A stretch of 64,000 bases of DNA from Eledone cirrhosa (taxonomy: Eukaryota): positions 20,894,001-20,958,000 of the forward strand of contig OZ024766.1 of NCBI GenBank assembly GCA_964016885.1, read 5' to 3'. Below, in pieces: positions 8,966 to 14,683 of the stretch (position 1 is its first letter; each line of letters starts with the position of its first letter). The notes under the pieces were generated by a model, which saw only the letters and a list, made by a program, of their open reading frames with translations, was not told the origin of the DNA and did no database searches. The position numbers were made by a program, and so were the translations under genes.

Positions 8966-11900
8966 TTACATATGGAAGCTAAGTATGTCGATGGCGTCGT
9001 TGTGGTACTTTTTGTGCCTTCTTCTCCTCTTCTTCCTCTCCTTTTTCTTCACCTTATCACTGTTGTTGTTGTTGTTGTCGTCTTCGGGGTTCTCGTTTTC
9101 TCCACTCGGTGGCGTAGCCGCAGTCGTCTGCGTCATTTGGTAGAACTGGGTCGACGGCGGCGCTGGAGTCGTCTCGTCGGTGGTGCGAAGCGGCTCGGTG
9201 GCCTGCGTCTGGTGTAGCGGGAGCGCGCTGCTGATTTGCTGCTGCGGGTCAACGCCCGTGCGTCCACCATCATCATCGTCATCATTGTGGTCATCATTAT
9301 TATCATCATCATCATCACCATCATCGTCATTATCATCAATGTCGTCATTTTTACCAATGGGATCACTGTTACTGTTGCTGTTGGTACTGTTGTTGTTGTG
9401 TTCAGGCGAGGTTTCAGGCAATAGAGTGCTTGTGTCTTCGTAATCGGAGCTCTCGGGTTTAGCAGCATCATCATCATCATCGACACCAATACCACTACTG
9501 TTACTGTTGCTGTTGGTACTGTTGTTGATGTGTTCAGGCGAGGTTTCAGGCGATAGAACGCTTGTGTCTTCGTAATCGGAGCTCTCGGGTTTAGCAGCAT
9601 CATCATCATCATCGACACCAATACCATTACTGTTACTGTTATTGTTGGTACTGTTGTTGATGTGTTCAGGCGAGGTTTCAGGCGATAGAACGCTTGTGTC
9701 TTCGTAATCGGAGCTCTCGGGTTTAGCAGCAGCATCAGCATCATCGACACCAATACCACTACTGTTACTGTTATTGTTGGTACTGTTGTTGTTGTGTTCA
9801 GGCGAGGTTTCAGGCAATAGAGTGCTTGTGTCTTCGTAATCGGAGCTCTCGGGTTTAGCAGCAGCATCAGCATCATCGACACCAATACCACTACTGTTAC
9901 TGTTGCTGTTGGTACTGTTGTTGATGTGTTCAGGCGAGGTTTCAGGCGATAGAACGCTTGTGTCTTCGTAATCGGAGCTCTCGGGTTTAGCAGCATCATC
10001 ATCATCATCGACACCAATACCACTACTGTTACTGTTATTGTTGATGTGTTCAGGCGAGGTTTCAGGCGATAGAACGCTTGTGTCTTCGTAATCAGAGCTC
10101 TCGGGTTTAGCAGCATCATCATCATCATCATCATCGTCAGTAACATTGCCACTGCTGTTATTGTTATTACTGCTGCTGTTGTTGTTGTCAGGCGAGGTTT
10201 GAGGCGGTAGAGCGCTCGTGTCATAGTAATCAGGGCTCTCGGTTTCAGCATGATCCCGATCAACATCATCACCATCACCTCCAACACCAGTAATACCACT
10301 ACTGCTGCTATTGTTGCTGCCGCCGCCGCTGCTGCCGTTCTTAGGCGAGATTTGAGTCGGTGGAGCGCTCGTGTCATCATAATCAGAGCCCTTTGCTTGT
10401 ACACCATCACCAGTAATACCACTACTGTTGTTGCTATTGCTGCTGTTGTTGTTGTTGTTGTTGTCAAGTTGGTTTTCGTTCGGCAGAGCGTAAATGTCGT
10501 CATAGTCGTCGTAATTGCGGAAGTCCGCGTATTCGACGTCATCGAGGGGAATTGTGGGCAACGTAGCGCCCCTTATGTTGCTGTCGTAATCACCGCCGCC
10601 GTCCTTCGTTAAGTTACGGTCCCCTCCGAGAGAGGACGTTCCGTTACTGCTCGGCGTCCAGTTTTTCGCCGCATCCCCGTCCGGGCCCACACCCCGCGAG
10701 TTTGTCTCCGGCGTTGTGCCCGAGCTTGGGTCTGGAGTTGCGTCTGTGTTCGGGTTTGTGACCGAAGTTGTGTCAGGGTTTGTGTCTGAGGTTGTGTCTG
10801 ATCTTGTGTCAGGGTTTGTGTCTGAGGTTGTGTCTGAGGTTGCGTCAGGGTTTGTGTCTGAGCTTGTGTCTGAGGTTGCGTCAGGGTCTTCACCACCACC
10901 ACCACCATCACCAACGACACTACTACTACTACTACTATTTCTACTATCACCGATACCATTATTTCCTACAGGTGCCGTGTCTCGACCTTTTCTTGCATCT
11001 GTCCGTATCTCATTTGAAGCGCTTCCAGTCATCGCCACGGTAACAGCTCCTGCAGCCGGCGGCGGTGGCGGCATTGCCGTTGGTAGTAGAAGAGGTGTTG
11101 GTGGTGCAGCTGCTGCTTTCGAAACTGCAGAACTAGCGCCGTCGCCATCTTGAGTAGAAGACGTTGCATTGTTATTATTGACTGAACTTGCGTAATCTTC
11201 TGGGTCTGATATAGCTTCATCAGCGTAATCCCAATTTTCATCATTGTCGTAGTCTTTGTCGTTGTATTTGGATGCATTGTAAGGAATGATTGGTGAATCT
11301 GCCACTGGTGTCGTTATTGTCTTCTTCTCTCCCTCGCTGTCTTTGCCCTCTACGTCCACAGACACTGCTTCCCCTGACACCTTTTTTGCTTCCCCCTCTG
11401 CTTCATCACCTGCCGAAAAATCTTCTAGTGGGGTCGTTGAGTTCTCTCCCCCTGGCTGTGTCGTGTTTGTCGCCGCTGCTGTTGTTTCTGTTACCCCAGA
11501 CATTTTTCCCTCTTCCTCTTTGTTCTCCCCCATGTCCCGCCATTCGTCGGCGCCGCCTGTTGAAAAATCTTCTAGCGGGCTCGTCGAGTTGTCTGCCCCT
11601 GGTTGTTGTGTCGTGTTTGTCACCCCTGCTGCTGCTGCTGCTGCTGCCGCCGCTGCCGCCTCCGTTACCACAGGCAACCATTCGTTCTCCCCCACGTCCC
11701 GCCAGTCTTCGTCGTCACCTGCCGAAAAATCTTCTGGCGGGCTCGTTGAGTTATCTGCCCCTGGTTGTGTCGTGTTTGTCACCCCCGTTGCCTCCGTTAC
11801 CCCAGGCAACCATTCCTCTTCGTTCTCTCCCAAGCCTTGCCATTCTTCATCGCCTGCTGGTAAATTTTCTAGCGTGCTCGTTGAGTTATCTGCCCTTGGT

Positions 11901-12207
11901 TGTGTAACGTTTGCTTCTCCAGCCCCTGTTTCCCTAGGCAACTCTTTATATCCCTCTTTGTCATCATCGCCTACTGAAATATCTTCTTGCGGGATCGTAG
12001 AGTTGTCTCCCCCTTCCCGCTTCGTCTTCGGCCCCGCTGTTGTTATCAGCAACGCCATCGTCGTGCTGCGCACGCTGTCGTCGCCGTTGCCGCTAGCAAC
12101 AGAAGCTGGTGTCACCTGACCGGATGAGGCTGCTGCTGTTGTTGCAGCTGCTGGCGTAACTGGAGCCGCCGTCGACGCTTCCTCCCCTCCGCCATCACCA
12201 CCATTGC

Positions 12208-12238
<31 letters not shown>

Positions 12239-13206
12239 GTCGCCATCAACGTCCTCCTCGCTGCCGCGGCGGCGGCTGTACAGTGGCTCCCCCCGTGGGT
12301 CAAGTTCACCAGAGGTCGTTGGGTCAAACTCCGACCTCCGTCCATTCCCTCCTTCTTCACTAAAGCTGTTGTCGCCGCCGCCGTCCGGTTCTGTGGAATT
12401 GTCGTCTGGCGGCAGTTCAGTTGTGGTCACATGATCACCGGCTATGCTGCTGCTGCTTCCTTCTCCTTCTCCTCCTCCTTCTTCTCCTTCTTCTCTTCCT
12501 CCGACAGCTTCACCTGCTCTTTCTTTCCTTCTGTGTCCCATGGTTTCCCTTCTTGAATGCGGATGGCCCATCGCATGATCAGTAGTTTCACCTGAGGAAG
12601 GCTCATCGGTCTTGTTCGAAGACAGAGCAGTTTCTTCCAGAGAAGACTCCTCAGTCGAGTTCGATGAAGCAGGTGTTTCATCTAACGGAGGCTCTTCTGT
12701 CGAGATCGATGAAGCAGGTGTTTCATCTAACGGAGGCTCCTCAGTCGAGTTCGATGAAGCAGGTGTTTCATCTAACGGAGGCTCTTCTGTCGAGATCGAT
12801 GAAGCAGGTGTTTCATCTAACGGAGGCTCTTCTGTCGAGATCGATGAAGCAGGTGTTTCATCTAACGGAGGCTCTTCTGTCGAGATCGATGAAGCAGGTG
12901 TTTCTTCTAGGGAGTGCTTTTCAGTCGAGTTCAATGAAGCAGGTGTGCTGTCGGTGCTGTTGTGACTGTCATCACCATCACCATCACCATCACCGTCTTC
13001 AATCTCCTTATCATCATCATCATCGTCATCATCATCATCATCATCGCCATCACCCATTCCAGGATGGCTTATCGTCTCCCCTTTCCCCAGCTCTGTTTCC
13101 GCCGTGGTGGAATTTCGGTGGTGGGGGTGGGGGCGGGGGTGGGGGCGGGGGTGGTGGTGGTGGGGGTCCACCGCCTTCTCCCCCTGCTTTATGCTCTTTT
13201 CATGAA

Positions 13207-13240
<34 letters not shown>

Positions 13241-14683
13241 GCCATCACCCATTCCAGGATCGCCTATCGTCTCCCCTTTCCCCAGCTCTGTTTCCGCCGT
13301 GGTGGAATTTCGGTGGTGGTGGCGGTGGTGGCGGGGGTGGGGGTGGCGGGGGTCCACCGCCTTCTCCCCCTGCTTTATGCTCTTTTCATGAACATCAACA
13401 TCATCATCATCACCGACATGATCACCATCACCATCACGGTCGCTCTTATTTTCCTTAGCGTCCTTGTCCGTATGATTGCGGCTGCCATCTTGGTCTCTGC
13501 CGCCATCACCATCACCACCGCCATCTTCCTTATGCTTGTCATCGCCATCACCATCACCATCACCATCACCATCAACATGGCTTTTGTCATCATGGTCATT
13601 AGTATTATTATTATTAGTACTATTATTATGATTGTCTAGATGCTGCTCGCCGCCGCCGTCACCATCACCATCACCATCACCACCGCCATCTTTCTCATGC
13701 TTGTCATCACCATCATCATCGCCATCGCCACCGCCATCTTTCTTATGCTTGTCATCACCATCACCATCGCCATCTGTATTATGCTTGTCATCACCATCAC
13801 CATCACCACCGCCATCTTCCTTATGCTTGTCATCACTGTTGATACCATCGCCATCACCATCACCACCGCCATCTTTCTCATGCTTGTCATCACCATCACC
13901 ATCGCCATCGCCACCGCCATCTTTCTTATGCTTGTCATCACCATCATCATCACCATCACCATCGCCACCGCCATCTTTCTTATGCTTGTCATCACCATCA
14001 CCACCGCCATCTTTCTTATGCTTGTCATCGCCATCGCCATCACCATCACCATCGCCATCTTCCTTATGCTTGTCATCGCCATCGCCATCACCATCACCAT
14101 CACCCTTATCCTTGTCATCACCATCACCATCACCATCATCCTTGTCATCACCATCACCATCGCCACCGCCACCGCCATCTTCCTTATGCTTGTCATCACC
14201 ATCACCATCACCATCGCCACCGCCATCTTCCTTATGCTTGTCATCGCCATCGCCATCACCCTTATCCTTGTCATCGCCATCACCATCACCATCGCCATCA
14301 TAGACAGACATATACTCCGCGGGTTCTATCATGCCGCCAACTTCACAGCTGTCGCCCAGGCAGGAGAAGTTCGCGCAGGGCTCGTAGGTGCACTGCGCCG
14401 TCGCACCGTGCAGGCTGGTGTTGATGAGGATGAAATAAGGGCTGTCGACTGTGCTCCCTTCGTTGAAGAGCCCGTGATGCATTGAAATGAAATCCCCAGT
14501 TCCGCAGCTGTCTTGTATCAGAGGAATTTTTAAGCCGTTTCGTAACCTTAGTTGGCAGTTTTTCACCAAAATCTGCCCTGTGCCCTCCAAGTTATAGTTG
14601 TGTTGACCGGTGGTGGTGGTGTTGGTGGTGCGGTTGTTGTAGGCAGGTAAAGGTATGCCTGTTATGTTGGCGAATAGTCTCAC
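8966..14683 (-). CDS. ZP-B last exon: VEZP/VERL-type ZP-C domain followed by a ~1800-aa Asp/Glu/Ser/Thr/Gly/Asn-rich repetitive tail (1905 aa in this exon)
   Basis: Acceptor ctctgcag|GTG at 14684-85; 5718-bp stop-free frame; N-terminal VRLFAN...KNC...LIQDSCGTGDF...GLF...VDSPYF...CTYEPC...C...DSC motif (6 Cys) aligns with ZP-A exon 4; GC-rich coding composition; TAA at 8966. Confidence 0.88.

Follow-up and report, generated by a model that had tools for sequence, protein, structure and literature searches.

A predicted octopod zona pellucida protein with a polyanionic repeat tail behind its module, a candidate egg-coat subunit

A 64,000-nucleotide stretch of the genome of Eledone cirrhosa (assembly GCA_964016885.1, contig OZ024766.1, positions 20,894,001 to 20,958,000 of the forward strand) holds a minus-strand gene, here termed gene A, in which a zona pellucida (ZP) module is followed by a very long acidic tail built from repeats. 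This stretch is referred to as the window, and all positions are given in its own numbering. As the window consists largely of tandem repeats (159 rows of Tandem Repeats Finder, TRF, output), the locus raises the question of whether such a tail is a genuine part of a protein and, if so, what kind of protein would carry it. The tail is confirmed as real, coding and under frame selection. The gene probably belongs to the VERL_C family, that of the mollusc VEZP-type ZP proteins, and the favored reading, held here with about even confidence, is that it encodes a secreted glycoprotein subunit of the octopod egg coat (vitelline envelope or chorion).

Gene A splices to a protein of 2,114 amino acids (aa) without internal stops, with a mass of about 221 kDa and an isoelectric point of 4.05. 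Its exon 4 runs from an acceptor at 14683 to the stop codon at 8968-8966, and this coding part of 5,718 nt has no stop in the coding frame, while the other two minus-strand frames have 42 and 304. A preliminary description of this DNA had reported a 5.7-kb single exon; that exon was recovered, the span quoted for it (8966-14300) covers the tail only, and its single-exon status is predicted from the genomic sequence. The exon also encodes approximately 115 ZP-C residues (Cys at 14557-14347) upstream of the tail, its 5′ part (14302-14683) comprising the second half of ZP-C with six Cys, followed by 15 residues without Lys or Arg. The raw stop-free frame is longer, at 2,303 codons (15877-8966), as it is extended by intron 3 (14684-15415), a 732-nt (CT)n microsatellite that is in frame and stop-free. 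Reading this 2,303-aa frame as one exon is ruled out, since the segment 15415-14684 matches intron 3 of the tandem paralogue, gene B, in position and phase. Retention of this intron by automatic annotation could place 244 Ser/Leu/His residues within ZP-C. A scan of the genomic sequence found no GT[AG]AG within exon 4 and no A(A/T)TAAA before 8804. The first AATAAA after the stop, a candidate polyadenylation signal, lies at 8799-8804, 162 nt past it. Six sites inside the exon score 7/9 on a crude donor consensus, equal to two of the inferred donors, and alternative splicing within exon 4 is possible. It was also observed that the exon 4 acceptor directly abuts a donor-like sequence (14678-14686, minus strand), an arrangement that resembles recursive splice sites and whose use would drop the start of the exon.

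The tail could in principle be neutral read-through or an artefact, that is, microsatellite DNA left open by chance or a product of the assembly. In a window so rich in tandem repeats, non-coding triplet arrays yield stop-free frames of 809 and 975 codons, so the length of a frame is by itself no evidence of coding. Evidence for selection must come from non-repeat codons, because triplet microsatellites are frame-neutral; the earlier argument, that a frame open despite many triplet microsatellites suggests selection, reached a conclusion that stands by a route that does not. The 853 tail codons outside TRF arrays contain no stop; judged from base composition, the probability of this is about 3e-16. 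In Markov simulations of the tail (orders 1, 2, 5 and 8, with 200 runs each and 800 in total), the best frame always had at least 38 stops, and no open run exceeded 625 codons. The TRF periods are divisible by 3 in 41 of 41 tail rows and in 36 of 118 rows elsewhere in the window, the rows being overlapping and not independent, and dinucleotide microsatellites, which make up 11% of the window, are absent from the tail (0%). Between older repeat copies, gap lengths are multiples of 3 in four of six pairs; the two most diverged pairs have non-triplet gaps, probably through misalignment. The young copies are nearly identical, so a comparison of synonymous with non-synonymous changes is uninformative. 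No orthologous tail was found, in searches with thin eukaryote coverage, which leaves some room for an artefact. However, misassembly could change copy numbers but not the features of frame, period and glycosylation motifs, and with a polyadenylation signal placed closely behind the stop, read-through appears extremely improbable.

The motifs of the tail point in the same direction when their counts are set against locally shuffled tail controls (2000 shuffles). There are 58 N-glycosylation sequons in the whole tail versus 25.9 in the shuffled controls, and 31 versus 13.2 +/- 3.0 outside arrays; neither count is reached in any of the 2000 shuffles. The excess outside arrays implies a translated, secreted tail, and the many N-x-S/T sequons of the preliminary description are therefore upheld. 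The other two motifs that it had listed fared less evenly. Acidic DY sites number 13 versus 4.2 in the whole tail and are borderline outside arrays (6 versus 2.7, p 0.03). Sites of the S-x-E (Fam20C) type are in excess in the whole tail (27 versus 17.3, p 0.009) and not enriched outside arrays (9 versus 6.9, p 0.23); their excess is a product of repeat amplification only, and the case for Fam20C sites is weak. A natural non-coding control lies between genes B and A, in the form of a (GGT/GAT)n array (25874-26803, minus strand) with about 65% identity to the Gly-Asp block of the tail. Its three minus-strand frames contain 15, 23 and 67 stops. Arrays of this class are possibly the raw material of the tail.

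The second part of the question concerns the module. Pfam VERL_C (PF25272) scores 29.5 bits on the exon-4 part of gene A and 34 bits on the read-through frame, against a cut-off of 27.2. A profile was built, with gene A excluded, from gene B and two relatives: Octopus bimaculoides XP_014785894.1 (P0003, 249 aa, named “vitelline envelope sperm lysin receptor”) and Patella caerulea KAK6185371.1 (P0002, 280 aa). Against this profile spliced gene A scores 71 bits (E 2.5e-21, residues 42-325), where the best of 500 shuffles reaches 3.4 bits. The ten Cys of gene A all fall within this one module, Cys50/68/98/144 in ZP-N and Cys252/269/307/312/317/322 in ZP-C, and align with those of the three other proteins, eight of them in four of four sequences and two in three of four. 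The proposed fusion of the tail to a ZP module is thus borne out, and membership of the VERL_C/VEZP-type family is probable on sequence grounds. According to the accessible part of PMC9290575, VEZPs are abalone egg-coat proteins that are conserved across molluscs and separate from the shell EGF-ZP family. Three O. bimaculoides models apparently fall in the VEZP clade of its supplementary tree, as read by machine from the text of the figure and not mappable to the present sequences.

Searches for further members gave few results. A HMMER scan of the full protein library returned three matches, the Octopus and Patella proteins and P0001; the last was rejected as spurious, being a repetitive unnamed protein without a VERL_C match. 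In searches with thin eukaryote coverage, the exon-4 ZP-C region found none of 44 candidates among proteins of 275-877 aa (word-seeded), a search of proteins of 491-2,000 aa, a range that ends below the 2,114 aa of gene A, found none of 7,358, and the Octopus protein as query recovered only itself (1 of 75 candidates). Sequence searches of the PDB gave chance matches only (E 0.15-0.49). Matches of the exon-4 fragment in the Atlas were limited to low-recognition viral clusters and were taken as noise. For the Octopus protein, Atlas features and structure led to ZP and VERL_C clusters. The N-terminal half of its structure model best matches the ZP-N of VERL (Z 7.4, root-mean-square deviation 3.2, 88 aligned) and also that of ZP1 (Z 7.1), while the C-terminal half has a predicted local distance difference test score (pLDDT) below 50. 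With the same model, the top ranks in Foldseek went to uromodulin and VERL, at E 0.006-0.008 (best 5.7e-3).

Two closer identities were considered and rejected. Gene A is not VERL proper, as it has a single module, no tandem N-terminal ZP-N repeats and a Cys-free tail. Nor is it a shell EGF-ZP protein, as Pfam gave no EGF match for exons 2-4 and there is no Cys outside the module. The shell proteins (EGFZP, EGFL and LUSP-17) resemble gene A in being secreted matrix proteins with a ZP module; they differ in carrying EGF-like domains and in forming a separate ZP family, as described in the accessible part of PMC9290575.

The 5′ exons of gene A complete the module. Exon 2 (18118-18300) encodes the end of a putative signal peptide and the start of ZP-N with Cys50 and Cys68; it is bounded by splice sites and aligns with exon 2 of gene B and with both relatives. 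Exon 3 (15416-15804) supplies the remaining ZP-N (Cys98 and Cys144), a D/G-rich linker and the start of ZP-C. A candidate exon 1 (24488-24542), which is tentative, provides an ATG and the hydrophobic core of the putative signal peptide (19-residue hydropathy of 3.1 at the N-terminus), and its phase-1 GTAAGT donor gives an in-frame join to exon 2. A second in-frame ATG is found nearby at 24572 and a TATAAA at 24641. The 3′ end and donor of this exon occur nine times (the exon and eight copies) in a GT-rich array (23078-24492, minus strand), one copy having its own ATG at 23587. Given these copies, the gene may use other first exons or donors.

The arrangement of the protein departs from that of known ZP precursors. 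As described in the accessible part of 10.1101/2023.06.21.544075, the module of a canonical precursor is C-terminal; behind it come a cleavage site, a hydrophobic patch with a blocking role and a membrane anchor, and polymerization is set off by cleavage after the module. In gene A, 1,792 residues lie beyond the last Cys. There is no furin site after ZP-C, the first Arg past Cys322 being residue 605 and the first R-x-x-R occurring at 660, and there is no transmembrane anchor, the top hydropathy window past residue 30 reaching 1.58 in a poly-Ala stretch. The architecture is inverted relative to the canonical one, with the module first, the tail behind it and no anchor. Basic clusters occur at residues 920-931 and 1012-1015 (Arg920-Arg931 and Arg1012-Arg1015, encoded at 12268-12553, about 600 residues into the tail) and at 2092-2098. 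These could be candidate convertase sites, as judged from the sequence. The last cluster belongs to a C-terminal basic patch that ends at the stop codon (8966-9055), with R-K-K-R at residues 2092-2095 and a net charge of +6 over the last 40 residues.

Such an arrangement invites the explanation that the tail acts as an entropic bristle or as a propeptide to be discarded: it would keep the ZP module soluble in the secretory pathway, in place of the external hydrophobic patch (EHP) and transmembrane brake, until a non-furin protease removes it. The tail does occupy the place that a polymerization-blocking propeptide holds in canonical ZP proteins (10.1101/2023.06.21.544075, accessible part), there is a short hydrophobic stretch just behind the last Cys, and the basic clusters are found further along. 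Against this, no Arg or R-x-x-R lies close behind Cys322, and gene B and the two relatives, whose chains stop immediately past ZP-C, manage without any tail. Selection for sequons over the full length of the tail is suggestive of a role in the mature protein, and a disposable tail is regarded as very unlikely.

The ends of these related proteins are informative in their own right. Gene B and the two relatives stop 6-15 residues past the last Cys, which implies that the subgroup is anchor-less and that gene A gained its tail at a free end. The Octopus protein has, like gene A, a full VERL_C module (196.8 bits) with no membrane anchor after ZP-C; unlike gene A it has a basic net charge (+47), stops six residues past its last Cys, is tail-less and lies much nearer gene B (45-60% identity, as opposed to 20.8% with gene A over 283 columns, pairwise E 5e-17). 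The Patella protein starts with a hydrophobic segment, matches VERL_C over the full profile with a single module (221 bits) and has the Cys pattern of gene A; it differs in ending just past ZP-C without a tail and is 22% identical to gene A.

Long extensions are found in other ZP proteins. Insect apical-matrix ZP proteins such as Dusky-like and Zye have a ZP module and then a long low-complexity region; they differ from gene A in being membrane-anchored, in belonging to other ZP families and in their independent origin. Acidic repeat tails are common among secreted matrix proteins. In abalone, VERL and VEZP14 belong to the same Pfam ZP family as gene A and carry long extensions that are repetitive, glycosylated or negatively charged. 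The accessible parts of the sources describe glycosylated low-complexity repeats for VEZP14 (10.64898/2026.07.29.741504) and negative charge on the VERL repeats (PMC3567151). As far as these sources extend, the abalone extensions are N-terminal and include folded, lysin-binding ZP-N repeats, whereas the tail of gene A is C-terminal, Cys-free and disordered. VEZP14 is described as a type-I membrane protein whose precursor is cleaved at a consensus site (10.64898/2026.07.29.741504, accessible part), whereas gene A has neither site nor anchor.

The tail itself comprises 1,777 Cys-free residues with a net charge of -336 (D 18.2%, G 12.7%, S 10.7%, T 8.3%, E 7.9%, N 7.3%), and every block of it falls on the disordered side of a charge-hydropathy plot, in agreement with its earlier description as a polyanion. 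All six repeat blocks that had been described were found where they had been placed. The first behind the module is a (GD)n-DDKHK(E/K)-DGG block (13500-14301; 38% Asp, 12% Lys+Arg, 6% His) with 13 DDK-x-x units at 14275-13543, nine of them DKHK(E/K), two DKHEK and two DKDKG. It is followed by two 65-aa poly-D / Pro-His / NSTTAETELGKGETI units (13012-13412, 195-nt period) and by six 15-aa Ser/Thr/Glu/Pro repeats (12647-12946, 45-nt period). Beyond the two Arg clusters lie four TNTTQ...NST(S/T) units, starting at 11914, 11779, 11620 and 11470, with one partial unit at 12007 (11400-12010, nine sequons), and then 3.7 copies of a 12-aa DTTSDTNP-type repeat (10756-10887). The last block (9365-10400), with acidic Tyr and many sequons, holds six AAKPESSDYEDTS repeats of 40 or 44 aa and two older, diverged copies at 10384 and 10231. 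Its six units (10114-9466) are spaced 40, 44, 44, 44 and 44 aa apart with a TRF period of 132 nt, so that the unit earlier given as 40 aa is mostly 44 aa.

The composition of the tail recalls the Asp-rich biomineral proteins (aspein/Asprich, starmaker and DSPP/DMP1), which are disordered, Asp/Ser-rich, repetitive polyanions. The likeness is compositional only, and no Pfam match in the tail lies above cut-off; a match to Extensin_1 (31.4 bits against a cut-off of 105) was likewise dismissed as compositional. Binding of Ca2+ or other metals by the tail is a plausible candidate property from its composition. It might then be supposed that the protein belongs to a biomineral matrix, in which the Asp-rich tail would bind Ca2+ and control CaCO3 deposition (in statoliths, the stylet or a calcified egg case) on a scaffold of ZP filaments. 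Poly-D runs, 18% Asp and 8% Glu in a disordered chain of such charge are the composition expected of this class, but octopods have little mineralized tissue, and S-x-E sites show no enrichment once arrays are left aside. ZP proteins are present in coral and mollusc skeletal matrices; however, those of mollusc shells are of the EGF-ZP family, apart from VEZPs, according to the accessible part of PMC9290575. Egg-coat proteins, too, are typically acidic, the negatively charged VERL repeats being one example (PMC3567151, accessible part). With a vitelline-envelope type of module and no EGF domain detected, the biomineral analogy drawn in the preliminary description was not sustained, and a role in mineralization is considered distinctly unlikely.

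Gene B (36950-42516, minus strand) is a tandem paralogue upstream of gene A and codes for 426 aa in four exons (42516-42501, 40073-39906, 39280-38508 and 37273-36950), with intron phases common to both genes. It scores 74.6 bits for VERL_C (cut-off 27.2), has 15 residues beyond its last Cys, and shares 59.5% identity over 126 aa with the Octopus relative. Eight His/Gly repeats of about 10 aa lie within the linker between ZP-N and ZP-C, an insert that is missing from the Octopus relative. A 156-bp tandem array (36568-37037) contains three copies of the 3′ end of the last exon of gene B, stop codon included. Intron 3 holds a weak Rfam match to transfer RNA (tRNA; 31.2 bits against a cut-off of 29; 38261-38328, minus strand), which is probably the head of a tRNA-derived short interspersed element.

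In the favored egg-coat reading, a signal peptide would route the product of gene A into the secretory pathway, where the tail would become N-glycosylated and perhaps O-glycosylated and Tyr-sulfated. The N-terminal ZP module would form filaments, probably together with VERL_C paralogues such as the basic gene B. Without a cleavage site past ZP-C, at least the first 600 residues of the tail would stay joined, and the filaments would be bottle-brushes of disordered polyanion. This brush may hold water and divalent cations, and so determine how far the coat swells, how wide its mesh is and how tough it becomes. Reversible cross-links could be provided by the Asp and His/Lys clusters, the basic C-terminal patch or basic paralogues. 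The repeats would have arisen by in-frame expansion of the micro- and minisatellites that are abundant in this genome.

Several points weigh against this reading. The VERL_C score of gene A itself is marginal (29.5-34 versus 27.2 bits). Exon 1 is tentative; its Val run derives from (GTG)n, and its 3′ end and donor recur eight more times downstream. A single-sequence fold model of gene A has a pLDDT of 35 and no usable fold, and the fold matches of the Octopus relative are below significance (E >0.001; Z <8, level with fibronectin-III folds). No tailed orthologue was found by word-seeded searches of proteins up to 2,000 aa with eukaryotes thinly covered. Lacking a post-module cleavage site, gene A leaves the switch for assembly unexplained. 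The egg-coat role, for which the chances appear even, is suggested by the type of module. ZP modules serve many non-egg matrices, as noted in the accessible part of PMC13361971.

The last of these points underlies a further explanation, in which the same ZP filament with its polyanionic glycan brush would belong to a non-egg matrix, such as skin or sucker cuticle, mucus, oviducal cement or spermatophore coats. Repeated co-option of ZP modules elsewhere (PMC13361971) and the polymerizing egg cement made by octopus oviducal glands (PMC8976471) are consistent with it, as far as the accessible parts of these papers extend, and the His/Gly repeats of gene B loosely resemble squid-beak proteins (PMC6884462, accessible part). 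Nonetheless, gene B contains no GHGxY motif (0 occurrences), the motif that drives phase separation of the beak proteins according to the same part of that paper, and the module type takes its name from vitelline-envelope proteins. A non-egg matrix is a tentative possibility, on the unlikely side.

With regard to the assembly of an egg coat, the two genes carry opposite charges: -23 for the module and -336 for the tail of gene A, +25 for gene B, the Octopus relative of which is likewise positive. It can be speculated that genes A and B form a charge-complementary, anchor-less and furin-independent ZP pair, in which the mixing of an acidic module and its giant polyanionic glyco-brush with a basic, His/Gly-rich partner would trigger pH- or ion-dependent complex coacervation before or during filament formation. 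This proposal is unlikely as it stands. If true, coacervation of the two would replace the canonical switch of cleavage and EHP release, and would offer a cephalopod route to a tough chorion from exonized microsatellites.

Elsewhere in the window, a stop-interrupted fragment is found at 45274-45798 (minus strand), which we take to resemble the C-terminal end of an RTE-type reverse transcriptase of a long interspersed element, and related 96-bp tandem units occur at 47547-48515. An assembly gap of 200 N (55995-56194) lies beside a 72-bp satellite.

A literature search turned up no description of octopod chorion proteins at the molecular level, and no paper on gene A or on cephalopod VERL_C proteins, most subscription journals and some supplements being outside its scope. 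Against this background, genes A and B are concrete candidates for octopod chorion proteins. Gene A presents a known module family in a reversed arrangement, with the extension behind the module and with the cleavage site that gates polymerization and the anchor both missing. The locus is also a clean case of the in-frame capture of genome-wide microsatellites, for which a non-coding array of the same class, with broken frames and at a distance of about 11.5 kb, serves as a control. The protein would be a ZP bottle-brush if its tail remained joined to the module, and gene A makes it testable how anchor-less mollusc ZP proteins stay soluble and then assemble.

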